64,000 nt of DNA. Origin: a virus. Location: positions 17,538-81,537 of the IMG/VR virus record IMGVR_UViG_3300042563_002299; one strand, given 5' to 3'. Positions 7,672-33,643 of the stretch are shown here, piece after piece (within the stretch, counting starts at the first letter, position 1; every line of letters starts with the position of its first letter). Position numbers and translations under genes: made by a program. The notes below the pieces were generated by a model, which saw nothing but the letters and a program-made list of their open reading frames with translations, was not told the origin of the DNA and searched no databases.

Positions 7672-10173
7672 TTAGAAATCTAACTTAATAACATACTGTT
7701 GAATACCTTGTCTTAGTACCGGTGATTGTAATTTAGACATCACCAAAATATCTTGGTTTTCATCTAGCAAAGCAATCTCCGTAACATATGATTGTGTACC
7801 AAATGTCCATGTTGGGTTCTGTGAAACTAAGAACTCGTTAAAACTTAAGTTGATCTTATACTTCATTTCGTAAATGGTTGCCTGAATATCAGTTTCCAAA
7901 TTACCGTAGAAATAATACTCATCACCGAAATTAAGTTGTTGTCCTGTTGCTCCGTTTTGTACTAATTCAACATAGTTATTCAAATTATAGTATGGTGCCG
8001 AATTGTAATTTTCCGCAGTTACCGTAAACGTACTTGCGGTTAGTGATTGTTGTGTAACATATCCATTAAGGAATAAGTCACTAATTTGATCTGTAAAATC
8101 AATCAATCTCCATTGTGTTGGGTCTGGTCTCTGACCTGCAATTGTTCTCTGAGCCAACACTTGAAATTGTGTTGCGTAGAATCCAGCGGGAACAGTACAA
8201 GTAGGACAAGATGTTGTTGTAGTTGTTGTAAATGGACTAATAGTCGTTGTTGTCGTAGTACTTGGCGAAGTTGTTGTTGTTGTGGTTGTTGGATTAAATC
8301 CTGGTTGTACCAAACAATTAAATTCCGCACCAAATCTAACTGCCACATTCTGTGGAGTATCAGGAGTACAAACATTTGCCGTACCAACAACACTTGTATA
8401 GTAATTACTGTGTAACGAATTAGTAAATGTGTCAGTATTTGATAAACGATAAGTTACCCAAAGAGTTTCTCCACCACCAGTTAACACTCCCGTTGAACTT
8501 GAAACTCCGCAGGTGTTTGGTGTGATTAATGAAACTTGTGGAGCCGGTAACGTCCAGTTTCTATTTGATTTATATGATAATGCCGCAACAATTTCTTCGT
8601 CATCAATAATAATCAATTTAGAATCAGGAAATACTTTACCAATTCTACTTGGTAATCCGTTAGGTTGTGCAAATGTATCCCAAAGGTTATAATACCTCAA
8701 ACCCGGTTGGTTCATATTATCAGAAATACTTGATTTGATGTATTGTACTTGGAATAAGTTTTTACCATCAAACCCTGGAGGATCAACCCAAAAAGTTTGT
8801 CCGAAACAACATTCAGGGTTTTTGTGCCACATCAAAGTTGGTATGTGTAATTTAAAGTTTCTTGCTTGTCCTTGAGTGTTATCAGGATTTTGAGTATCGT
8901 AAGGTTCTAAAGCAAATTTTTCTCCATAGAAAAAATCTATTGTTTGATTTGTATAGTGAATAATCGCAATCGCTTTTTGTTCTTCCGGTGTTACAACAAT
9001 TTTCTCACCAAATGAATTATAATAATAAACAGAATCTGTTGATGTCTGAGCATTTGAGTTGGTATAACCAAAGTATTCTTTTTGACCTATATATTCAATA
9101 GATCCAAATTTAGTATAATCTTGGTATGTACTTGAATTTAATCCAGCAGGACTCTCAGTCCAAGGAATATTCATATTCCATATTTTAACATCAAATTGAT
9201 CGGTATCACAAACCGATTCAAAATCAATAACACTTTGACTCCAATGTGGTTCAGGTGTAAAACTATCATACAATGGAACCATTTGTGGTGGGTAGATCAA
9301 AGTTCTCGCAAGACAATCTGACGCTAAATTTGTAAAGTCAGGTGTTGGTCTATCTAATGTTAATAAATCACCACAAACCGCAACAATTCTATAAGTTAGA
9401 ATTGAGAAACAACTAATAACGTCTTTATTACAGTCAGGCGCCGGTGGTAATGGACACTGTGGTGTATTTGAAGGTGTTAAACACGGGGTATGTGTTGGTG
9501 TTGGTGTTGGGGTCGCCGAAGCACATGGGTTTGAACTTGTTGTGCTTGGTGTTGGTGTTGGAGTGGGTGTTTGACCTACTGATGCGGTTGGTGTTGGTGT
9601 TGGTAAATTACTACATGAACAATCAGTCGCTGCTCTACCATCATAATATATTGTAATAAAGTCACCCACACTTGGTGTGTTATTATTTTGACTATTACAA
9701 TCCATTCTTTGAACACTAATTTCGTTCGTACCATTTAAGGTAGACATATTAACAATATAATTAGGAGTGATAACATAATTGTTGTTAACAAGTGCTTTCC
9801 AATCTACTGTTGTTGCTGTTGTGTTTCCTGAGAAGAACCCTCTCATTGCAGCTCTATTATAAACGGACTCAATACCCGAATCCATAAATGGAATACCATA
9901 AATATTTGTTTGACCTTCATCAACTAAGTAAGGATATTTTATATACTGTCTATTAGATTCAGGAACACCAGAACTATTCTGAGCGTTAAATTCAGGTTCT
10001 AAAATAACCGTATTTGCTTGATTGTAAGTGTTCGGTAATTCATTGTATGAAACCTCACTATCCCCTAAAGCAAAATATGATATCCTAAAATTACCCTCAG
10101 ATAATCTTTGTCTACCTGTGTCAGTAACACGAGTGTTAACTAATCCTGACGTATTTTTAATTATATATCCCAT
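7672..10173 (-). CDS. Virion structural protein (baseplate/fibre-attachment type) with PT and poly-Thr tracts
   Basis: N-term TDTGRQRLSEGNFRISYFALGDSE and C-term YVTEIALLDENQDILVMSKL resemble fibre-attachment domains; mucin-like inserts. Confidence 0.65.
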   Translation of the reverse strand: MGYIIKNTSGLVNTRVTDTGRQRLSEGNFRISYFALGDSEVSYNELPNTYNQANTVILEPEFNAQNSSGVPESNRQYIKYPYLVDEGQTNIYGIPFMDSGIESVYNRAAMRGFFSGNTTATTVDWKALVNNNYVITPNYIVNMSTLNGTNEISVQRMDCNSQNNNTPSVGDFITIYYDGRAATDCSCSNLPTPTPTASVGQTPTPTPTPSTTSSNPCASATPTPTPTHTPCLTPSNTPQCPLPPAPDCNKDVISCFSILTYRIVAVCGDLLTLDRPTPDFTNLASDCLARTLIYPPQMVPLYDSFTPEPHWSQSVIDFESVCDTDQFDVKIWNMNIPWTESPAGLNSSTYQDYTKFGSIEYIGQKEYFGYTNSNAQTSTDSVYYYNSFGEKIVVTPEEQKAIAIIHYTNQTIDFFYGEKFALEPYDTQNPDNTQGQARNFKLHIPTLMWHKNPECCFGQTFWVDPPGFDGKNLFQVQYIKSSISDNMNQPGLRYYNLWDTFAQPNGLPSRIGKVFPDSKLIIIDDEEIVAALSYKSNRNWTLPAPQVSLITPNTCGVSSSTGVLTGGGETLWVTYRLSNTDTFTNSLHSNYYTSVVGTANVCTPDTPQNVAVRFGAEFNCLVQPGFNPTTTTTTTSPSTTTTTTISPFTTTTTTSCPTCTVPAGFYATQFQVLAQRTIAGQRPDPTQWRLIDFTDQISDLFLNGYVTQQSLTASTFTVTAENYNSAPYYNLNNYVELVQNGATGQQLNFGDEYYFYGNLETDIQATIYEMKYKINLSFNEFLVSQNPTWTFGTQSYVTEIALLDENQDILVMSKLQSPVLRQGIQQYVIKLDF

Positions 10174-10201: not shown

Positions 10202-11854
10202 TTATATTACAACAGGTTCGGGTGGTGTTGGATTTACAACATTTAACACACAACAACCACAATTATTAATTGAGTTGTTTGTAATGGTCAGTTGATAGTA
10301 TCCAGCAGCAAGTTCACAAGAACCTGTTGGGTTATTTATTACACTATTAGTAATGGTACCACTAACCGTTTGGTTACTACCCATAGTAATAGTGTTTGTG
10401 TAAATATTATTTTGTTGCGTTACCGTTATTGGATTATCAGCAGTACACGGACCTCCAAGTGGGTATGTATTTAACGACGTACTTGACAATGTCATTGGTC
10501 CAGTACCGGTGATCGTTGTAATATTATTATATGTAGGTAAAGGTGATAGAGTTGTTGGGTAATAATTAAATGTTGATGACTGAACTAAATCGAATGTTAC
10601 CGTAACCCCCGCAGGTAACACAGGTGTAGTGATTGAGAATGTATTCAACGAATAATTAACATTTAATGTCAAATTATATGTAACAGATGGTGTATTACCT
10701 ACAATAACACTCGCAACTGTACCGATTGTTGTATTAACATCCCTCACAAAAATATCATAATTACCATTTGTAAGTCCGTTGAATATTGGTGATGATTGGT
10801 AAGTTGCTCCCCCGTTTATTGAATATTCATATGGTACTTGTCCTCCTGATGCCGAAACAATAATACTACCATTAGTACCACAAACTGCGTTATTTACATT
10901 AGCACTTACCGATATCGTATAAGCGGTCGAGCATTGTCCGTTGATAACATCCAAACTATAAACCGATGGTGTTCCCAAAACTTGCCAGTTACTTATTGGT
11001 GGATCGGAAGGGTCGTTATTTATTAATAACACAGAAGGATTTGAATATCCTGTCATTGTCCATTGGGACGGTGTTGATCCTGTATTCCAATAAATAACAT
11101 ATTGTCCTGTTGATGAACTCCAACTTGGTTGACCGTTTATTTCATTACTTGGGTCTAAATCAATTTGTATTGCTTCCGTTACTTGACCTATCTTTGTACT
11201 TCTAACAACCAGTGTTGCACACAAAGGACCATTAACTTTAGGTATAGATGGTATGTTACAATTACCGGGATATGATTCTTCAATAAAATAATTTGTACTA
11301 CCACTAACAGTCCAAGTGTCCCCCGAAGGATATAGACCACTATTACTTAACGATTCATAAAATGATCCTTGACAATCTAAACTTTCACAGAAAATCCAAA
11401 CACCTTGTGATTGACTCCAAAATACATAACCTAACTCGGTAATACCGTACTGTAATTTGTAATATGGTTTACCATTTTTTAACCCTAAACTACTTGTTGA
11501 GATGTAAACCAAAGTATCTTCAACAACTCCCGATACAACAAAACAAACACCAGAAAAAGTAGTGGTTTCAGCCGTTAAAACACAAGTTGTAATTGCCGTA
11601 AAATCTTTATAGTAATCAGTAACAGTCGCTTGATATGCTCCAACACCTAAGTTAGTTAAAGCCGGAGCAAAACTACCTACCTCCCAAAAAATAGTATAAG
11701 GTGGTGTACCACCTGTTATAATTAAAGCGGTTGCACCATCGAAAGATATGTCACTTGAGGGTTGTAAAACCGAGCAACTTATTCCCAATGGGAATATTGT
11801 AATGACATCACATTCATTTGGTCGGTTAGTACTTTGTATTGTAGAATTTCCCAT
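10202..11854 (-). CDS. SprB-repeat-like beta-sandwich virion surface protein
   Basis: ITGGTPPYTIFW...TNLGVGAYQATVTD and GSIIVSASGGQVPYEYSING...FNGLTNGNYDIFVRD. Confidence 0.7.
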   Translation of the reverse strand: MGNSTIQSTNRPNECDVITIFPLGISCSVLQPSSDISFDGATALIITGGTPPYTIFWEVGSFAPALTNLGVGAYQATVTDYYKDFTAITTCVLTAETTTFSGVCFVVSGVVEDTLVYISTSSLGLKNGKPYYKLQYGITELGYVFWSQSQGVWIFCESLDCQGSFYESLSNSGLYPSGDTWTVSGSTNYFIEESYPGNCNIPSIPKVNGPLCATLVVRSTKIGQVTEAIQIDLDPSNEINGQPSWSSSTGQYVIYWNTGSTPSQWTMTGYSNPSVLLINNDPSDPPISNWQVLGTPSVYSLDVINGQCSTAYTISVSANVNNAVCGTNGSIIVSASGGQVPYEYSINGGATYQSSPIFNGLTNGNYDIFVRDVNTTIGTVASVIVGNTPSVTYNLTLNVNYSLNTFSITTPVLPAGVTVTFDLVQSSTFNYYPTTLSPLPTYNNITTITGTGPMTLSSTSLNTYPLGGPCTADNPITVTQQNNIYTNTITMGSNQTVSGTITNSVINNPTGSCELAAGYYQLTITNNSINNCGCCVLNVVNPTPPEPVVI

Positions 11855-11869
11855 TATCTATATAAATAA

Positions 11870-12850
11870 TCAAATATTGTATTTTTGAATATAAGATTTC
11901 ATATTCTCCATATATTTTATTGTTGAACTATCCTTATTTATATAATCAAAGTGATTGGGGTTCTCTCTCATTTTTAATATTGGATCAATATTAATATAGT
12001 CCCCTTTATAGAATTTTGTAGTTTTTAGATTATCAGTAACTCCCGCCATGTGTAATATTGGGTGTTGTTCGTATTTTTTAATGTCGTCAGTTGCCCAAGA
12101 AAAACTCATTTCATCTGTTATCTTTGTTTCAAATCCGTACATCCATAAGTTCCAAAGTAATGCCCACATTTCTGCCGTCCAAAACTGTATTTGACCCGGA
12201 TTAATCGGAAATCTTTTTTGGTAATTTAACATTTGATCGTACAACTTAATTGAATCTTTATAGATCTTATCCCAAAGTTCACAATTAGAATTCTTGATGA
12301 GGTATTGTCCTCCACCTGAATTTTTTTGATTAGTTTTAATTGTGTCGACATCAACACCAATCACTTCAGACATTTCACTTATAAGTTGTCCCTTTTCGGT
12401 GTTTAGGTGTTTTTGTTCATATCTTCCACAACAATCCATTATGTAATCATACCCAATATACCCTATGGTATCGGATAAATAACAAGTATTGTCATTTAAT
12501 AATTCTTCAAAATTTGGTAGTTCTCTAAAAATGATATCAGCGTCATGTAAGAAAAAAAGTTTACCAAATTCAGGATTTGATTGTATCCACTTCGATATTA
12601 GGTATGGTTTTATACTCGGTATATAATGTTTCTTAACTCTCTCATCAACAAAGTAATGAACGTTAACACCTAACTCTTTTAATTCTTCAGATTGTTTGGA
12701 TGGTTTGGTGTTCCCTTGAACTAAACCTAAAACCACGTGTATTTTATTTGGGTCAATACCTTTCTCAATAAAATTGTGAATGTACAATTTTATTTGCCAA
12801 ATAAAATAGGGGACATCGGGTTGTGCTGAAACAAATAATATGTTTTCCAT
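11870..12850 (-). CDS. Glycosyltransferase, GT-A fold, resembling GT95/GT96 (HPAT/SGT1) protein O-glycosyltransferases
   Basis: PDVPYFIWQ, YIPSIKPYLISKW, LHDADIIF (DxD), GGGQYL, WTAEMW, ILHMAG. Confidence 0.7.
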   Translation of the reverse strand: MENILFVSAQPDVPYFIWQIKLYIHNFIEKGIDPNKIHVVLGLVQGNTKPSKQSEELKELGVNVHYFVDERVKKHYIPSIKPYLISKWIQSNPEFGKLFFLHDADIIFRELPNFEELLNDNTCYLSDTIGYIGYDYIMDCCGRYEQKHLNTEKGQLISEMSEVIGVDVDTIKTNQKNSGGGQYLIKNSNCELWDKIYKDSIKLYDQMLNYQKRFPINPGQIQFWTAEMWALLWNLWMYGFETKITDEMSFSWATDDIKKYEQHPILHMAGVTDNLKTTKFYKGDYINIDPILKMRENPNHFDYINKDSSTIKYMENMKSYIQKYNI

Positions 12851-12904
12851 AAAGGAAAATTAAATTAAAATAAGGTAAAGTGAATTAATTTTAAATTTTA
12901 AACT

Positions 12905-15487
12905 CTATACGATTTCATAACTTCCGTTCCATAAAAATCTATCACCATTCGCCCAAGTAAATGGTTGAGTCGCGTTTACATCATTTGCAGTTCCATTTAC
13001 AATATTTACATATTGCATAGGGGCTTTAGTGTTAAACCCTGCTCTTCCTCCAGCCATTATGGCATTATACCAAGCACTACCATTATCTAATAAAGTTACC
13101 GTCATCAATATAGCGTCAGCATGAACTGCCGTAACTGGCATCGAGACATACCATTCTCCCGTACCAAATGTTGTTGTTGATCCCATTGCGATATTTCCTC
13201 TAACAAAACATGTTTTACCAATTACTTTATACCAACCTTCTATAGTTCCATTACCAATTACTGGATTAGTACCTGACGATGTCCAAACAGGTGTGTAGGA
13301 TGACCAAGCAGATTCTATTTGTGACCCAGAAAGGTTAAATGTTATTGTAGATAATGTTGTTGCCGATACCGTTGGTGAAGTTACAGTTGTTGCCGTCATA
13401 CCGCTTGTATAAGTATTACCGCTAATTATAACAGAACTACCAGACATCCTAACTAAATCCGCATCGTTTACTCTGAAGTTTATGTAGCTTGGTGGGTATG
13501 TATTGTTAGTTGCAAACATATCAATACCAACAGGTACGCTTGAATTGTCTGAAATCCCTAATTGGATTTTTCTATCAGAGCTTAACTCGTCACCACCGCT
13601 TGATGCTATAAATGGTCCTTCTTTATTAACACCACCTGTAGATGTAATTAATAATTCTCCGGTTTTTTGATAGATAGCCCCATAAACGTCTAAGTCATAT
13701 TGAGGACTACTAACCCCAATTCCCAACCTTTTATTTACATTATCCCAAGTAAATCCAGTAGTTTGACTTACCGTACTTGCCGAACTTTGGAATAGGACTC
13801 CACCTGTAAATCCTGATTGAATCTGTGTTGAGTTAATAATTACTACATCACTTGGTAAATTTTGATAAGTTGTTGCTGATATTGTTATCGCACTTAAACC
13901 CGCATTAAATATTGTATTACCCGTAACCGTACCTCCTGATAACGGTAAAAATAACCCAATCCCACTTTGACCACTTGTCCCTGACGATCCGTTTGATCCT
14001 GACGTACCGCTAGATCCTGAACTTCCTGAGGATCCTGAAGAACCAGAACTACCTGATGAACCCGATGAACCTACTTGAGCGCCTATTGTTGTTGTAACAT
14101 ATGAATAATGGGAAGTTCCTTGAGTATAAAACGATGCCGAACTTACCTGATTATCTTGATTTACAACTTTAATAATCACCACCATTCTGTCTGTAGAATT
14201 AACCGATGATGTCGGTAATGTAATGTCAGTAATAACACTTACTGGTGTTGTATTATTATTATTCCATCCAATATTAACCGCTTGTGACGAACCAATAAAT
14301 CCTTGAATAACTCCTAAACTGTTCGCTAAATAAAGCTCAACAAAAGCCTCTAAATCATCGTTTTCATCATCTTTTGTGAACCATAAATTAAATATTTGGA
14401 CTCCACCAGGTATAATATTAAATCCAAATTGAGTTGATGCGTAACTACCAATTGTTGTACCTGTTGATAGTGCCGAAATACTTTGAGTTGTAACAGTTTG
14501 ACCACTAGCCAATGGGTCAGTTGACAACTGTAAATAACTACCTACCTCAACTATGTCTGAATTAAAGAAATAATTAGTTCCACCACCGATACCATTTTGA
14601 CCACTAGTCCCTGAAGATCCTGAAGAACCTGAGATACCGCTAGTTCCTGAACTTCCTGAGGATCCTGAAGAACCAGAACTACCTGATGAACCTGAAGAAC
14701 CGTCCGCACCATTATATACCCATGAAATTGTATATGTAAGTGTGTTTAGTGTACCACTACCGGCAATAAACGTTAAAGAAAAATCAAAATAACTTGTGTT
14801 GTCAGTACCACCACCAACTTCAAAAATACCAATTACGTTGTTATTCCCAAGTTCTGTTATTTGTAAATATGGTCTGCTAGAACCTGGTGTATTAATAATA
14901 GTTAATAAGGTATTTAACCAACTATAATAATCCGTTGAATAAGAATCGTCCTTACTAATACTAATCTCAGTTATACTTGAGATGGTACTTGAATTTGTTA
15001 CAAAAAATTTGCTATTAGGGTCATTTGGTGCCTGAGTACCACTATTAAAATCCCACCTACCTGAATTAGATCCATCATTACCTGTAATTCCATTAGACCC
15101 GCTAGTACCGCTTGATCCAGATGTACCTGAAGAACCGCTAGACCCTGTTGTACCTGAAGTTCCGCTAGACCCTGAAGTTCCATTAGCACCACTAGATCCT
15201 GATGTCCCTGATGTTCCGCTAGTTCCATTGGCACCACTAGATCCTGATGTTCCGCTAGTTCCATTGGCACCACTAGATCCTGAAGTTCCATTAGACCCAC
15301 TAGAACCGTTTGATCCTGATGTTCCATTAGTACCTGTGGCTCCACTTATTACTTGAGCAACCTGTTGGATTGTCGCCTTAAAAGAAGAACCGGCAGGATT
15401 TTGAGATGTGTTACCGGTGATGACTATGTGAATTAAGTCCGTTAAAGAAACTCCAGTTGCTTGTATTTGATCCGTTAATAATGCCAT
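12905..15487 (-). CDS. Tail fibre/appendage protein with collagen-like (Gly-Ser/Thr-Ser)n blocks
   Basis: Three GTSGSS blocks, RLGIGVSSPQYDLDVYG fibre repeat, C-terminal WSSYTPVWT...GNGTIEGWY...G tip domain. Confidence 0.8.
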   Translation of the reverse strand: MALLTDQIQATGVSLTDLIHIVITGNTSQNPAGSSFKATIQQVAQVISGATGTNGTSGSNGSSGSNGTSGSSGANGTSGTSGSSGANGTSGTSGTSGSSGANGTSGSSGTSGTTGSSGSSGTSGSSGTSGSNGITGNDGSNSGRWDFNSGTQAPNDPNSKFFVTNSSTISSITEISISKDDSYSTDYYSWLNTLLTIINTPGSSRPYLQITELGNNNVIGIFEVGGGTDNTSYFDFSLTFIAGSGTLNTLTYTISWVYNGADGSSGSSGSSGSSGSSGSSGTSGISGSSGSSGTSGQNGIGGGTNYFFNSDIVEVGSYLQLSTDPLASGQTVTTQSISALSTGTTIGSYASTQFGFNIIPGGVQIFNLWFTKDDENDDLEAFVELYLANSLGVIQGFIGSSQAVNIGWNNNNTTPVSVITDITLPTSSVNSTDRMVVIIKVVNQDNQVSSASFYTQGTSHYSYVTTTIGAQVGSSGSSGSSGSSGSSGSSGSSGTSGSNGSSGTSGQSGIGLFLPLSGGTVTGNTIFNAGLSAITISATTYQNLPSDVVIINSTQIQSGFTGGVLFQSSASTVSQTTGFTWDNVNKRLGIGVSSPQYDLDVYGAIYQKTGELLITSTGGVNKEGPFIASSGGDELSSDRKIQLGISDNSSVPVGIDMFATNNTYPPSYINFRVNDADLVRMSGSSVIISGNTYTSGMTATTVTSPTVSATTLSTITFNLSGSQIESAWSSYTPVWTSSGTNPVIGNGTIEGWYKVIGKTCFVRGNIAMGSTTTFGTGEWYVSMPVTAVHADAILMTVTLLDNGSAWYNAIMAGGRAGFNTKAPMQYVNIVNGTANDVNATQPFTWANGDRFLWNGSYEIV
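14005..14692. repeat. 58-bp direct repeat pair (14005-14062 and 14635-14692), 57/58 identical, 630 bp apart
   Basis: taccgctag[a/t]tcctgaacttcctgaggatcctgaagaaccagaactacctgatgaacc. Confidence 0.85.
15207..15278. repeat. Perfect 36-bp tandem duplication in the first Gly-Ser block
   Basis: cctgatgttccgctagttccattggcaccactagat x2. Confidence 0.85.
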
Positions 15488-15508
15488 ATCGTATAATAAA
15501 TATTTTGG

Positions 15509-15805
15509 TTACTGAAAATTAAACTGCGTTCCATCCATAAAGAAGTAATATTGTAAATTTTGGAACTGTTTTGGCGCTCCTTCAACTGTACAATAAATTA
15601 TTTCAGACACTGAACATCCGTTTGAATCGGTTAAAGTTAATTGTAGTGCGGGTGCGGTGTTGAATTGAGATGGTAAAGTAAAAGTTACAGGAAAAGTGGT
15701 TCCACTACCAACATAAGAGCAATTATTTCCATAAACATCACATGCAACACCACTAAATGGTGGTGTAACACTTGTAGCACTATAAACTATTACTTGATTT
15801 GCCAC
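15509..15805 (-). CDS. Small virion protein, paralogue of 5445-5666
   Basis: GTG start; PPFSGVACDVYGNNCSYV...FPVTFTLP...TDSNGC, plus C-terminal KQFQNLQYYFFMDGTQFNFQ. Confidence 0.7.
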   Translation of the reverse strand: MANQVIVYSATSVTPPFSGVACDVYGNNCSYVGSGTTFPVTFTLPSQFNTAPALQLTLTDSNGCSVSEIIYCTVEGAPKQFQNLQYYFFMDGTQFNFQ

Positions 15806-15807
15806 GA

Positions 15808-17994
15808 CTAACTACAACTAACACAAGATATGTCATAATCAATCAACAAGTTGACTTTTATTTCAGTATCTTGTAATGGATTTATTTGTTGAACTGTACA
15901 GTTTTTAGTTGTATCCTCACATGCTGTTGTTATTGTAATCCTATTTGATATTACATCAACAGTAACACTTGATATACCTGAAAAACTTTCCAAAATATTT
16001 ATAATGGCATCCGCCCAAACCGTATCACTTGGATAATCTGTGGTTCCTGTTGAAGTGTAGAACTGTGTTTGTGCTGATACCCCACCAACCTCAGCGTAAA
16101 TCGTAAAGTCAGCAGAATTAATAATACAATTTGTATCACCACTTGTAAGATCGTAAAAACCTTCTAAGTACATGGACCTTATCGTCTTTTTCTGTATTAA
16201 ACCACTATCAAAGAATTGTTCCTCACAAACAGTATAGTATCTATAATCCACATATTTTTTAGTTCCAGTAAGAGTTACCGATTTTGTTAAAGAACACCCA
16301 CTTACATCAGTACAAGTTAAACTATATGTCCCTGCGGTAAGACCACTAACCGTAGATCCTGTTTGCCCGTTAATACTTCCTCCACTCCATACTAAATTAA
16401 ATGGTGGTTCCCCTGAAAAAATAAAAGTAGTGATTGACCCATCGTTACCATTAAATGGTTGTGAAGCAAATAAATCAAAATAAACCGATTCACTATAATC
16501 AACATAAACAGCAAAACTCTGAATACAATTTGGTGTACCAGAATCTTGTACCGTAAGCGTATAATTACCCCATTTTAGGTTATTAAAAATACCAACAGGA
16601 CTTGTTGTACTTGTTGGATTATAAGTTGGGCCTGTCAATGTAAATAAGTAAGGTAATGTACCTCCCGTCGAAACAACAACTTCAATTCTACCATTATCCC
16701 CCCCACATGTCGTTCCTGTAACTGCGGTTGTTGCACTATATAAATTAGTTGAGCTAATTGTTGTTGTTGCAGTATAAGTACAACCAGCGGATGTTACCGT
16801 TACTAAGTAATTACCATTAGGTAACCCATTAAATGTCTGATTTGGATTTCCTAACACACCAACTTGTTGTATTCCTGAACTACCTGAAACTGAAATTAGT
16901 AAGTTAGCCTCGGTACTATTTCCATTATCAACCAAAACTTGTATTGATCCACTACTTGTAGAACAAAATGAATTAGTTGTGTTAACAGCAACCGTACTAA
17001 ATGAGTTTGGTGTTTGTAAAGTAACGCTATCAAATATCGTACATAAACCAGCATCAGTTACCAAGAAAGAGTATGCTCCCGATGATAAACCTGTAAATGT
17101 TAATGACGTATCAAACGTTATTCCAACTTGACCCGAAGATCCGCTGAAAAAATAAGGTGCGGTTCCATTTGCAACTATAAACTCAACTTCCCCGTCGTTC
17201 GCAAAACAACTTGGTTGCTGAATCGTTATAAAACCGGCAGATTGTAATGGTGCAACGGTATTAACAAAATATGATTGTGAACTACTACAACCGGATGAGT
17301 TAGTTATATCAACAATGTAAGTACCACTTGTTAACCCTGTAACTGTTGTACCTGTTTGTCCGTTTACATTTGAACTCCAGTTTATCGTATAAGCAGAAAT
17401 TGGAGGAGTTAAACCTGTAATAAATATTTTTCCACTTCCTCCACCAATACAACTAGCATCGTCAACAACATATCCACCAAATGTGAATCCTGTTGATGGT
17501 GTTAAAATAACTGAAGCCGTTATCCCTGTACATCCACCACCATCGTTAGCAACTATATAGTACGTTCCCGCAGATAAGTTGGTGAACTCATAATAAGGTG
17601 TTGGTGTTATTGCTGATGTTATGTAATTATCACTACCATCGTAAAGAATAAATGACGCATTCCCATAAACTGTAGGTGTAAACCCTGTAATAACACCATT
17701 ATCTAAACCACACGAAGGTGCTGTCGAATCAATAGTTACAGTTGTACCTGTTGAAATGTAAAATGGTTGGACTATTTTGGTGGTCACGTTCGCAACATTA
17801 ACATAATAAGTACCACCTGTCAGTCCCGTCACATAATAAAAAGTAGTACTTGCAGATGAAGGTAGATATAAACCGGCAGCATCCGCAACACTATATGTGG
17901 CAGTATCACCGGTTATGTTAAAAAACACCGCACCTGATCCTGTATTACTACAGTCACCAGTGACGCTTAAATTATATACTTGAATGTACCCCAT
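15808..17994 (-). CDS. Multi-SprB-repeat virion surface protein
   Basis: Repeated C...G.I....GG..PY...W......TGLTAGTY...V.D..GC units. Confidence 0.75.
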   Translation of the reverse strand: MGYIQVYNLSVTGDCSNTGSGAVFFNITGDTATYSVADAAGLYLPSSASTTFYYVTGLTGGTYYVNVANVTTKIVQPFYISTGTTVTIDSTAPSCGLDNGVITGFTPTVYGNASFILYDGSDNYITSAITPTPYYEFTNLSAGTYYIVANDGGGCTGITASVILTPSTGFTFGGYVVDDASCIGGGSGKIFITGLTPPISAYTINWSSNVNGQTGTTVTGLTSGTYIVDITNSSGCSSSQSYFVNTVAPLQSAGFITIQQPSCFANDGEVEFIVANGTAPYFFSGSSGQVGITFDTSLTFTGLSSGAYSFLVTDAGLCTIFDSVTLQTPNSFSTVAVNTTNSFCSTSSGSIQVLVDNGNSTEANLLISVSGSSGIQQVGVLGNPNQTFNGLPNGNYLVTVTSAGCTYTATTTISSTNLYSATTAVTGTTCGGDNGRIEVVVSTGGTLPYLFTLTGPTYNPTSTTSPVGIFNNLKWGNYTLTVQDSGTPNCIQSFAVYVDYSESVYFDLFASQPFNGNDGSITTFIFSGEPPFNLVWSGGSINGQTGSTVSGLTAGTYSLTCTDVSGCSLTKSVTLTGTKKYVDYRYYTVCEEQFFDSGLIQKKTIRSMYLEGFYDLTSGDTNCIINSADFTIYAEVGGVSAQTQFYTSTGTTDYPSDTVWADAIINILESFSGISSVTVDVISNRITITTACEDTTKNCTVQQINPLQDTEIKVNLLIDYDISCVSCS

Positions 17995-31336: not shown

Positions 31337-33178
31337 CTACGAGAAGTTTACCGCTTTTAAGTTCAATACCCTTACATTAATGTCCTTATTTGGGTATCTA
31401 ATTTGGTAAGTTTGTGTTGGTGTTGCAAAGATAGTATCTGCCGTTGGTTGTATCTGTCTTGTTAAAGGATCCGCATATGGCATCGATGTTTGAGCCGATG
31501 AATATTGACCACCAACTTGATTAAAGAATAGAACATCAGAAATACTCACAATACCATTTTCGGACTGTAGTATTCGTCTTAATTCAGAGATATTAACGTT
31601 TTGACCTAATTCTCTAACTAAGGGGTTAAAGAACTCTGACACCAACTGTATTACTTTGGCAATAACCGCACCTTGATTTTGACTATTATCTAAAACAACA
31701 TCAACCGTAACTGAAAGATCTATCGTTTCTGCTGCTTCTATTGAAATGTAGTCATTTATCATACGATAATTTGATAGGTAATTTGCGACGTTTTGTTTTA
31801 ATGTGTTTGAAACTACGTTCGTTAAACTACCACTTGTATCGTAAGATAACATTTTAATTTTTATTTTATTATTCTCTTCAGTGATCGCAACTTTAGCAGG
31901 TGCACCAAATTGAGAAGGCATTGTTCTTATAATTGAGTTGTAGTCATTCACCGTAACCGCTCTATTTTGAGCCGCGAAGTTAAATGCGACCATGTTTCTC
32001 ACGTCTTCAGTTGTTGGTAGGTTAGCACCTCCAATAGCCGCAGTCACATTATTACATTGTAAACTATTAATAACACTTCTGTTGACAGAATCTGATGGAC
32101 CATTAACCGCAAATGATACAGTACCAATCTGGTTGATTGTATTTATACCTAAGTTACTTGATAATCCACCACCAATCCTATATTGAACGAATAGAGTTGT
32201 GTTTGGTGTCAAAGCAGCACCCATAGCAAAGTTATTAGTATATCTACTTAAATCAAAACCTTTACCGTCACGGGCAAATTCTCTTAATTGTTGTTCTGCG
32301 GATATATTACCACCACCAAAGGTCATTTTACAGAAACCTTCAGGTGTATACTCACTAATAAATTTGTTTGATGTTGTTATATATCTACCTACTTTAATAC
32401 CAGGTTGATCAGATACTTTAGTAGGGTCTTCAATGAAAACTCTATCTTGTACCAAAGCATCCACCTCAAACCATCTCTCAGGACCTACGGTGATAAAATC
32501 TTGTGGTTGTGGTATTGTTGAGTATTGTGTTCCCGATTTAAGTAAAACACTTGTAATACCCAAAACATTTTTTTCAGGTAAGAATAATTCTAAATAAGGT
32601 CTAGCGTCGTTAGCGGTAATTACTCTCTTATAAACTTTTGTAATACCATTAACAACAACTTCTCGTTTAAGAATCGTATAATTAATAAGTTTACCACTTG
32701 AGTCAAAGTTTGGTATTTTAACTCGGTTTGGTGAACCCTCAGCATTTATTGGTGAAGCAAAATCAATATCATACACTGTTTCAAAAGGTTGTCCAGCACC
32801 ATTAACTTGAGATCCTCGTCTTAAGACACCACAATATCTTAAATCTTCCCTATCTCCAAAAGCAGGTACTGTAATTGAAAAATCAACTAAGGCAACTGAC
32901 GGTCTTTGACCCGGTACTTTTAAACCATAAGTTCTTGCAATATTATAAACGGAGTTCTTTTGTTGAGCAAACTGTAATACAGTTTCTTGGATGCTTCTAT
33001 CTATTTGAAAGTTAAGGTTATCCGTAACCGCCGCATTCAAATCTAACATAACAGAGAAAATACCCGCATCGTTAAAATTTTGAACGAGATCAGGGTAATA
33101 CGTTCTAGTGAAGTTAATTAACTCAGTTCTTACTCCTTGAAAATCTCGGACTGTATAAGATATATTCTTTTCTGCCAT
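31337..33178 (-). CDS. Baseplate wedge subunit (T4 gp6 / baseplate J-like)
   Basis: RDFQGVRTEL...YYPD, IARTYGLK, YRIGGG...N, GGA, AQNRAVTVNDY. Confidence 0.85.
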   Translation of the reverse strand: MAEKNISYTVRDFQGVRTELINFTRTYYPDLVQNFNDAGIFSVMLDLNAAVTDNLNFQIDRSIQETVLQFAQQKNSVYNIARTYGLKVPGQRPSVALVDFSITVPAFGDREDLRYCGVLRRGSQVNGAGQPFETVYDIDFASPINAEGSPNRVKIPNFDSSGKLINYTILKREVVVNGITKVYKRVITANDARPYLELFLPEKNVLGITSVLLKSGTQYSTIPQPQDFITVGPERWFEVDALVQDRVFIEDPTKVSDQPGIKVGRYITTSNKFISEYTPEGFCKMTFGGGNISAEQQLREFARDGKGFDLSRYTNNFAMGAALTPNTTLFVQYRIGGGLSSNLGINTINQIGTVSFAVNGPSDSVNRSVINSLQCNNVTAAIGGANLPTTEDVRNMVAFNFAAQNRAVTVNDYNSIIRTMPSQFGAPAKVAITEENNKIKIKMLSYDTSGSLTNVVSNTLKQNVANYLSNYRMINDYISIEAAETIDLSVTVDVVLDNSQNQGAVIAKVIQLVSEFFNPLVRELGQNVNISELRRILQSENGIVSISDVLFFNQVGGQYSSAQTSMPYADPLTRQIQPTADTIFATPTQTYQIRYPNKDINVRVLNLKAVNFS

Positions 33179-33184
33179 ATACTA

Positions 33185-33643
33185 TTAAATATTGATAATG
33201 ATAAAATCGCTAGATTCAAAAGCAGAATCCGTTATTCTGTAATCTATTTTAATTCTTGCTGTGTGTTCTAATTCTGCAATGTTGGTAACTTTAAATTCTC
33301 GTTCACCATCTTGATTTACCGTGAATCCTTTATCTTCTAATCCCGCAGATGCCGGTTCAACAGTGATATTGGTTACCTGTAGGTTTGGCATGTAGTTACC
33401 AATTGTATCTCTAATTTCAGATTCAATATCCGAAAACGTTGGTCCATCTAAAGGTTCAAAAATATACTCATAAAGACGAGTACCAAAATTGGGTAAGAAA
33501 TACCTTGACCCTTTTCTTGTTAAAAGTAAGTGAACTAAGTCAGATCTAATTTCAGCTTCGGTAGAATTTGTCACATCCAAATATCTACCTGTAAATGAAT
33601 CCACAAAAGGAAAAGAAATACCGTATGTAATGCCATTTGCCAT
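33185..33643 (-). CDS. Baseplate wedge protein gp25-like
   Basis: IRSDLVHLLLTRKGSRYFLPNFGTRLYEYIFEP. Confidence 0.9.
   Translation of the reverse strand: MANGITYGISFPFVDSFTGRYLDVTNSTEAEIRSDLVHLLLTRKGSRYFLPNFGTRLYEYIFEPLDGPTFSDIESEIRDTIGNYMPNLQVTNITVEPASAGLEDKGFTVNQDGEREFKVTNIAELEHTARIKIDYRITDSAFESSDFIIINI

Follow-up and report, generated by a model that had tools for sequence, protein, structure and literature searches.

We analysed a 64,000-nt stretch of phage DNA (the window; positions 17,538 to 81,537 of IMG/VR record IMGVR_UViG_3300042563_002299), in which a gene at 11870..12850 (minus strand, as are all features placed below between 7672 and 17994) encodes a 326-aa predicted glycosyltransferase. 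This enzyme is probably a cytoplasmic initiating O-glycosyltransferase for threonine-rich tags on virion proteins. The reading draws on a computed fold, conserved catalytic-type residues, family relationships and gene order, and on co-variation between the enzyme gene and poly-Thr tracts in proteins encoded near it.

The protein is a significant full-length match to phrog_4417 (E 7e-69, 233 bits, residues 6-319 against positions 3-290 of a 293-position profile), a phage family that has no name and whose function is unassigned. The family comprises 1356 cluster representatives by a word-indexed search and 838 representatives at E ≤0.001 by an exhaustive one, and it is present in 77 cultured-phage records, mostly Lactobacillus, Enterococcus, Staphylococcus, Lactococcus and Clostridium phages, plus one Chryseobacterium phage. 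An earlier note on this DNA had picked out five motifs in the translation, and all are found in the order it gave: PDVPYFIWQ (aa 11-19), YIPSIKPYLISKW (aa 76-88), LHDADIIF (aa 101-108), GGGQYL (aa 179-184) and WTAEMW (aa 224-229). Across an alignment of 51 homologues with 29-53% identity (A1), W18, Y76, D105, G180, W224, M228, W229 and H267 are invariant and D103 is conserved in at least 90%; the motifs are therefore not chance. The DxD motif D103-A104-D105 (12536..12544) is a predicted metal and nucleotide-sugar site and aligns with the invariant DPD of a hydroxyproline O-arabinosyltransferase (HPAT) family alignment, in which an invariant H232 aligns with His267 (12050..12052). His267 is the predicted third metal ligand, a role we assume from the DxD...H arrangement of retaining GT-A enzymes of the GT8 type.

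An AlphaFold 2 (AF2) model computed with A1 has a GT-A fold (predicted local distance difference test, pLDDT, 97.4; predicted template-modelling score, pTM, 0.94). The chain begins MENILFVSAQPD, forms a β-strand at residues 5-11 and is modelled throughout as one globular domain, with neither an N-terminal hydrophobic anchor nor a membrane segment. More than 100 solved chains match the model at Z ≥8, and the top ones are all nucleotide-sugar or GT-A enzymes: glycogenin (1zcu, Z 15.7), the Skp1 α-galactosyltransferase AgtA (6mw8, 14.9), LgtC (1g9r, 14.4), the UGGT catalytic domain (6fsn, 14.3), WbbM (13.9) and GlyE (5gvv, 13.7), with the PBCV-1 capsid glycosyltransferase A64R (2p6w) further down at 11.0. 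Foldseek ranking agrees with this order, and the best solved folds are those of retaining GT8, GT77 and GT24 enzymes. The GT8/GT77/GT24-type matches (Z 13.7-15.7 over 212-241 residues) have the same DxD...His arrangement at the metal site, whereas sequence identity to them is 7-13% and Pfam GT8 (PF01501) finds neither the window enzyme nor any of the 51 homologues, so the likeness is structural only. Searches of PDB sequences with the enzyme and with its profile returned spurious repeat matches only, and scans of the enzyme against Pfam and NCBIfam gave no family match. Elsewhere, domains of the enzyme's type are fused to GT60-like GlcNAc-transferase, protein O-fucosyltransferase, GT2, GT6 or GT61 domains, which independently marks them as glycan-building. 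We are confident in reading the ORF (open reading frame) as a GT-A glycosyltransferase, which is soluble, predicted to be metal-dependent (DxD...His) and placed in the structural clade of retaining enzymes, its catalysis being predicted from the model; the earlier assignment as a glycosyltransferase is thereby supported by the modelled fold, the DxD motif and the structural matches.

The best candidate acceptor is an 833-aa conserved structural protein encoded two genes downstream of the enzyme gene (7672..10173), a position that it also holds in related loci. It contains a poly-Thr linker, PTTTTTTTSPSTTTTTTISPFTTTTTTS (8209..8292, aa 628-655), which is a predicted O-glycosylation tract, and a Pro-Thr (PT) repeat linker (9457..9603, approximately aa 191-239 of the translation). 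The protein has no match in Pfam or PHROG scans. Its homologues at the same position are Ser/Thr (S/T)-rich in 62 of 73 loci and S/T/P-rich in 66 of 73. A sample unbiased with respect to the enzyme was obtained by searching with the 833-aa protein itself (alignment A4), which gave 70 informative loci, 66 with the enzyme gene and 4 without. Runs of at least five Ser or Thr residues occur in the 833-aa protein at 63 of the 66 loci with the enzyme and at 0 of the 4 without it (Fisher p 3.8e-5). On the tree of the 833-aa protein, enzyme status has to change three times, and each change is matched by the poly-Thr run (3/3 independent pairs). One enzyme-less relative (L315/G322) is a complete genome of 257,166 bp with inverted terminal repeats and no copy of the enzyme gene anywhere; it keeps the order of the 728-, 550-, 833- and 204-aa genes, its 833-aa homologue has PT repeats without a poly-Thr run, and it serves as a natural 'knock-out' for comparison. 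All four enzyme-less relatives retain PT repeats in this protein, which shows that PT linkers are not tied to the enzyme. The suggestion in the earlier note that the enzyme would co-occur with S/T-repeat genes consequently stands for poly-Thr runs (63/66 against 0/4), but neither for PT repeats, which persist without the enzyme, nor for collagen-like repeats, which are found in 12 of 80 loci (see below).

The same association recurs on other proteins in other phages. We examined 80 homologue loci from bacterial genomes, many of them in prophages, counting as an S/T-rich tract at least 12 Ser/Thr within 20 residues. Such tracts are present in the ORF directly upstream of the homologue at 20 of 74 loci and in the ORF six genes upstream at 6 of 31, with a frequency of ~2% at most other positions. 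In Bacillota prophages the tract forms the extreme C terminus of a ~200-225-aa tail-tube protein and of a ~305- or 398-aa capsid protein, or in some cases the tail of a small FN3-like protein, and these tags are almost pure Thr/Ser. Within one capsid-protein family (A2; 57 informative IMG/VR loci), a poly-Thr C-terminal tail is present in 5/5 loci with the enzyme and 0/52 without (Fisher p 2.4e-7), and 3/3 independent pairs on the A2 tree are concordant; pooling A2 with the 833-aa family gives 6/6 concordant independent pairs (sign test p ~0.03).

Cultured phages repeat the pattern, with poly-Thr tails or tracts on proteins encoded beside the enzyme gene in 7/7 checked: Enterococcus phiFL1A (gp45 and gp50, the enzyme being gp51), Lactococcus 1706 (orf10 and orf13, the enzyme being orf14), Clostridium FA88 (ORF18), Staphylococcus vB-SscS-F1, L. 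plantarum Iacchus, Chryseobacterium MA9V-3 and Lacticaseibacillus R3.3, in which the predicted capsid and tail-tube ORFs that carry poly-Thr are unannotated in the record. The enzyme gene of cultured siphophages directly follows the major tail or capsid gene and precedes the tail chaperones and tape measure. In most prophages with this gene pair the enzyme is the sole glycosyltransferase near the tagged genes, which fits an initiating enzyme that acts on the peptide itself.

Two further observations concern the tagged proteins. Four Bacillaceae loci (L045:5624-5992, L046:5654-5995, L054:5624-5992 and L061:5636-5995) encode, immediately before the enzyme homologue, small proteins of 113-122 aa. 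An FN3-like head is present in three of these, and all four continue with 50-70 residues of almost pure Thr, arranged as T6-T8 blocks with K/A/E-P spacers. These look like dedicated glycan-carrier decoration proteins. In Staphylococcus phage vB-SscS-F1 (L007:3767-5469) the annotation splits the major tail protein into pieces of 75 and 90 aa, the second of which has the poly-Thr tail at its end. A 295-aa ORF lies between them; the tail-tube gene may contain an intron or have taken up a mobile gene.

Under the mechanism that we propose, the enzyme would act in the host cytoplasm late in infection, as the lack of a membrane segment or signal peptide suggests, and would use a host nucleotide sugar. 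Either ahead of virion assembly or in its course, it would attach the first sugar to the hydroxyl groups of Thr (or Ser) where the phage's virion proteins have unstructured poly-Thr tracts. In the window phage the best-supported acceptor would be the poly-Thr linker of the 833-aa protein (8209-8292), and the Ser/Thr collagen-like fibre encoded upstream of the enzyme gene and other S/T-rich neighbours are possible additional ones. The glycan may be extended by the products of GT2 genes elsewhere in near-complete or complete relatives: two near-complete relatives, G316 (272.6 kb) and G317 (274.1 kb), have 7-8 GT2-family genes each, most of which form two groups well away from the fibre block (at ~158-170 and 258-262 kb in G316, and at ~7-16 and 245-247 kb in G317). 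Candidate roles for the glycan are linker protection, solubility, shielding and adhesion. From the computed features we infer that the enzyme is catalytic, and likewise its donor sugar, its acceptor residue and what the glycan does. The proposal in the earlier note that the phage glycosylates its own Ser/Thr-rich virion proteins is strongly favoured by this comparative genomics, but its choice of the collagen-like fibre is not backed.

Several points weigh against glycosylation of Thr-rich tags by this enzyme. The enzyme falls below the threshold of every curated glycosyltransferase family, its donor sugar and acceptor residue rest on inference, and our literature search found no biochemical evidence for a glycosylation role of the enzyme family. 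Independent gains and losses are few, at three per tested family. The AF2 model of the 833-aa protein is poor (pLDDT 36.8), so nothing is concluded on its fold or on exposure of the linker, and the persistence of PT-repeat linkers in enzyme-less relatives means that not all S/T/P-rich linkers depend on the enzyme. Finally, where the tagged gene lies directly upstream, tag and enzyme could co-travel as one segment. As an explanation for the whole of the tag-enzyme link, co-transfer of a single DNA segment was rejected: tags also occur 4-5 kb away, on the capsid protein encoded six genes upstream, and on the 833-aa protein encoded two genes downstream, and both arrangements argue against it.

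The relation of the enzyme to plant glycosyltransferases was examined by profile comparison. The earlier note had pointed to a resemblance of its ordered motifs to those of plant HPAT enzymes (GT95) and of SGT1/SERGT1 (GT96), an initiating enzyme that acts on Ser in extensin repeats. The Pfam HPAT profile (PF23452, cut-off 23.9 bits) gave no match to the enzyme at E ≤1 in hmmscan and none at E ≤10 in a six-frame search of the window contig; weak matches are found for 2 of the 51 homologues (best E 0.09), HPAT being the sole Pfam family touched by more than one of them. PF23452 is also attached to 19 of the 30 nearest named clusters in the ESM Atlas, including one in which 58% of members have it, an association that we treat as a lead only; DUF7164 (PF23741), the second family named there, has no match in the window contig. 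The HPAT profile has no match in 301 Bacteroidota genomes, nor in 9 of the 10 searched genomes and records that carry homologues of the enzyme.

The sole match among those ten, in a Myxococcales metagenome-assembled genome (MAG), supplied a bridge sequence. There (L250:1-3621, on the same contig as the homologue locus L015), three genes lie head to tail: a 464-aa 2-oxoglutarate (2OG)-Fe(II) oxygenase with a PF13640 match, which we take to be prolyl-hydroxylase-like; a 377-aa HPAT-family enzyme fused to PqqD (34.4 bits against PF23452); and a gene of the phrog_4417 type. The operon looks like a bacterial peptide hydroxylation-plus-glycosylation pathway, and metagenomes contain ~100 relatives of the HPAT::PqqD protein. 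Alignment of A1 to this protein with hhalign gave 92.5% (E 4.9e-7, 242 columns), and alignment to 30 bacterial proteins that all have PF23452 (A3) gave 80.9% (E 1.3e-5, 245 columns), with at most 0.5% for GT60-like, GT6, GT2 and O-FucT domains as a specificity control. The motifs WQ, Y..KP....W, DxD, W..EM and H fall on invariant columns of both A1 and A3. These links, the shared motifs and the controls together indicate that the resemblance to HPAT is real remote homology and, by its sequence profile, the enzyme is a remote sister of the HPAT/GT95 family, outside family membership. The GT95-like reading in the earlier note accordingly survives in its motif order and profile affinity (hhalign 81-92%), but fails at Pfam HPAT and at the plant-type membrane anchor, which the enzyme does not have. 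The best structural matches are of the GT8 type, together with GT77 and GT24, yet the sequence-profile affinity to GT95 is real; we know of no solved GT95 structure, and such a gap would account for GT8-type enzymes heading the structural matches.

The comparison with plant and algal HPAT extends to the ordered motifs WQ, Y..(N)KP....W, DxD, W.(S/A)(E/D)M and H, and to action as an initiating enzyme on repetitive, unstructured protein tracts, which for the window enzyme is predicted. Plant HPAT enzymes have a type II membrane anchor, work in the Golgi and act on hydroxyproline (Hyp) with UDP-arabinofuranose as donor, whereas the window enzyme is soluble and without such an anchor, would work in the bacterial cytoplasm and has Thr or Ser as its likely acceptor. 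We lean, by a little, towards a wider reading in which the poly-Thr tag and the HPAT-like enzyme form a portable two-part module, placed on capsid, tail-tube, decoration, linker and fibre proteins, with the phage and bacterial enzymes as a sister family of plant GT95, and in which phages of several phyla (Bacillota, Bacteroidota and others) O-glycosylate their virions in the bacterial cytoplasm.

Remote homology to HPAT also raises the possibility that the enzyme glycosylates Hyp in PT repeats, as plant HPAT does in extensins. Neighbouring proteins abound in PT repeats, and the Myxococcales operon places a homologue beside a PF13640 2OG-oxygenase and a true HPAT-family gene. No PF13640 match was found in the two 93%-complete relatives or the other records searched, although control genomes did match, which argues against a Hyp acceptor. 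Without the enzyme, moreover, it is the poly-Thr runs that disappear and the PT repeats that persist, and the tags of Bacillota prophages are almost pure Thr/Ser. We consider a Hyp acceptor improbable.

Other bacterial relatives likewise have peptide-handling neighbours. Forms of ~450-590 aa in Chitinophaga niastensis (L026:2565-10110) and Elizabethkingia (L038:6001-8183) combine a phrog_4417-type domain with a second GT domain, Glyco_transf_7C. Both adjoin LanC-like genes, and the Chitinophaga form also adjoins radical-SAM and GT1-type genes; there are no poly-Thr genes near either. These loci may be glycosylated-peptide gene clusters resembling those for ribosomally synthesized and post-translationally modified peptides (RiPP-like). 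PqqD is a peptide-recognition element, and together its fusion to the HPAT-family enzyme and the LanC-like and radical-SAM neighbours mean that the bacterial relatives also point to a peptide-directed enzyme.

The earlier note had paired the enzyme with the fibre encoded immediately upstream, and the fibre itself is as described. This 860-aa protein (12905..15487) matches Pfam Collagen PF01391 in 4 stretches (E 3.4e-21), and tail-fibre PHROGs by way of its repeat region. It has three Ser/Thr-rich Gly-X-Y blocks of 31, 15 and 13 uninterrupted triplets (15065-15343, aa 49-141; 14576-14710, aa 260-304; 13955-14071, aa 473-511), with a Ser+Thr fraction of 0.49-0.56 and, unusually, no proline at all. 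The genes are adjacent as claimed, although the A+T-rich spacer between them (12851..12904) measures 54 nt, not 55 bp. We found no minus-strand terminator-like site between 11870 and 15487, and the fibre and enzyme genes are therefore probably co-transcribed.

The enzyme could on this basis be dedicated to the fibre, perhaps stabilizing a triple helix that has no Pro or Hyp. Beyond the 54-nt spacing, the missing terminator and Gly-X-Y blocks that are ~50% Ser/Thr, this draws on an unrelated Bacteroidota MAG (L025), where a similar collagen-like ORF of the GTSGTS type lies three genes away from a homologue, and on the slot of enzyme-less relatives, in which a collagen-like ORF is present in 0/4 (a sample far too small for weight). 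The wider lineage tells otherwise. Across 80 related viral contigs (L090-L169) whose enzymes are 66-98% identical to that of the window, the gene order is fixed as 995-aa, 728-aa, variable slot, enzyme, 550-aa, 833-aa and 204-aa. The slot holds a 98-aa ORF and the fibre, jointly present or absent in most loci; a fibre homologue is missing from roughly half of the 80, and in many loci the enzyme gene directly follows the 728-aa gene. Collagen-like repeats of at least 8 triplets are found in the ORF directly before the enzyme gene at 12 of the 80 loci. A cassette this variable is not a conserved partner, and every other lineage has poly-Thr rather than Gly-X-Y as the tract associated with the enzyme. 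Pairing of the enzyme with the collagen-like fibre is thus not upheld by the lineage; a dedicated fibre enzyme is a less likely alternative, compatible with glycosylation of Thr-rich tags, and the fibre is a possible additional acceptor in the window phage. The slot itself (12905-15805) appears as a fibre-exchange hot spot, in which the cassette varies in length, gains or loses collagen-like blocks, or is absent.

Two remaining alternatives place the enzyme's action outside the virion. Phage GT-A enzymes that act on envelopes are known, for example TarP (10.1101/2023.12.21.572611), and many homologues of the window enzyme are in prophages; the enzyme might serve superinfection exclusion or lysogenic conversion by altering a glycan of the host envelope (teichoic acid, O-antigen or capsule), its structural location being incidental. 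This would leave unexplained both the poly-Thr co-variation on capsid, tail and fibre proteins and the fixed position beside major structural genes, which holds for lytic as well as temperate phages from several phyla, and the enzyme has no membrane segment; we regard it as an unlikely account. Glycosylation of modified bases in phage DNA seems more remote still. DNA-hypermodifying GT-A enzymes of phages are known (10.1101/2023.12.21.572611), and the jumbo-phage relatives of the window have many glycosyltransferases. The genes for such enzymes, however, are grouped with 5mYOX, thymidylate-synthase-like and methyltransferase genes, and the enzymes themselves show R...DDD...EDY/F motifs (10.1101/2023.12.21.572611), whereas the window gene lies among fibre genes and has HPAT-type motifs. 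Small temperate siphophages carry the enzyme gene directly after the tail-tube gene, and here too the poly-Thr co-variation would be left unexplained.

Glycosylation of Thr-rich virion tags has partial counterparts among known systems. To our knowledge, tailed-phage virion glycosylation has been shown experimentally only for mycobacteriophages, in which phage-encoded glycosyltransferases reportedly modify capsid and tail-tube subunits at their C termini (Freeman et al. 2023, Cell Host Microbe). The likeness lies in the poly-Thr tails at the C termini of capsid and tail proteins encoded beside homologues of the window enzyme. The mycobacteriophage enzymes belong, as far as we know, to other glycosyltransferase families; relative to known phage virion O-glycosylation, the different enzyme family and a defined tag would be new. 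Among the structural matches, glycogenin, AgtA, UGGT and GlyE act on proteins, as is predicted for the window enzyme. GlyE, which takes part in the glycosylation of serine-rich-repeat adhesins, and AgtA extend existing glycans, whereas the window enzyme is predicted to initiate. A64R of chlorovirus PBCV-1 offers the parallel of a virus-encoded GT-A enzyme that acts on its own capsid protein in the cytoplasm, but it is a weaker match (Z 11.0) than the GT8-type enzymes, belongs to a different family and comes from a eukaryotic virus; PBCV-1 capsid glycans are atypical and N-linked. Our literature search found no description of phrog_4417, of HPAT-like phage enzymes or of poly-Thr tags as glycosylation sites, nor any of the phrog_4417 and poly-Thr pairing or its presence in Bacillota, Bacteroidota and jumbo phages. 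A 2025 study of large aquatic Bacteroidota phages lists four core groups of putative glycosyltransferases without roles (PMC12619734).

If the proposed glycosylation is real, sugar-coated virions would be common, including among Enterococcus, Staphylococcus, Lactococcus and Lactobacillus phages, which matter for therapy and dairy fermentation, and among abundant aquatic jumbo phages. Coated virion proteins could then be predicted from sequence simply by their poly-Thr tag, with a bearing on phage immunogenicity, stability and adsorption and on the mass-spectrometric annotation of virions. Plant GT95 would gain a prokaryotic and viral sister family whose members are numerous, soluble and readily expressed and crystallized, and the module reading would link peptide glycosylation in bacteria (through the PqqD-fused and LanC-associated relatives), phages and plants. 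Cultured phages offer a direct test of the hypothesis.

The earlier note spoke of T4-like phages, a group to which the window phage does not strictly belong. Its contig (81.5 kb, IMG/VR) has a CheckV completeness of 28%, which implies a jumbo phage of ~290 kb; we describe it as a jumbo myovirus whose baseplate parts are only distantly T4-like. The contig encodes a tail sheath (60495-63845), baseplate hub and wedge proteins, ribonucleotide reductase, a DnaB-like helicase and a UvsX-like recombinase. The enzyme and fibre genes are contained in a co-directional, structural-looking block at 7010-33643, which includes baseplate wedge genes (31337-33643) and is flanked by primase and ribonucleotide reductase; the earlier description of a soluble enzyme within a structural cluster is borne out by the wedge genes and the tail sheath.

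Both conserved neighbours of the enzyme gene have SprB repeats (Pfam; at 10202-11854 and 15808-17994). Directly downstream, in a conserved position, is the 550-aa SprB-repeat structural protein (10202..11854; Pfam SprB E 6.2e-8), whose homologues are S/T-rich in 29 of 78 loci. Upstream of the fibre gene, the stretch 15509..17994 encodes the 98-aa ORF, variable cassette partner of the fibre, and the 728-aa SprB-repeat protein, the conserved upstream anchor; the 98-aa homologue is extended by PT-rich linkers in several loci. SprB is a cell-surface adhesin repeat of Bacteroidota, which fits a Bacteroidota host for the window phage. Scans for sigma-70 promoters gave matches at chance level only, and a Tet/JBP search is uninformative, since its controls stayed as silent as its targets. 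A 5.3-kb contig binned as Candidatus Woesearchaeota (L009) encodes an enzyme 64% identical to that of the window, together with a poly-Thr ORF, and is most likely a phage contig of the window lineage mis-binned into an archaeal MAG.

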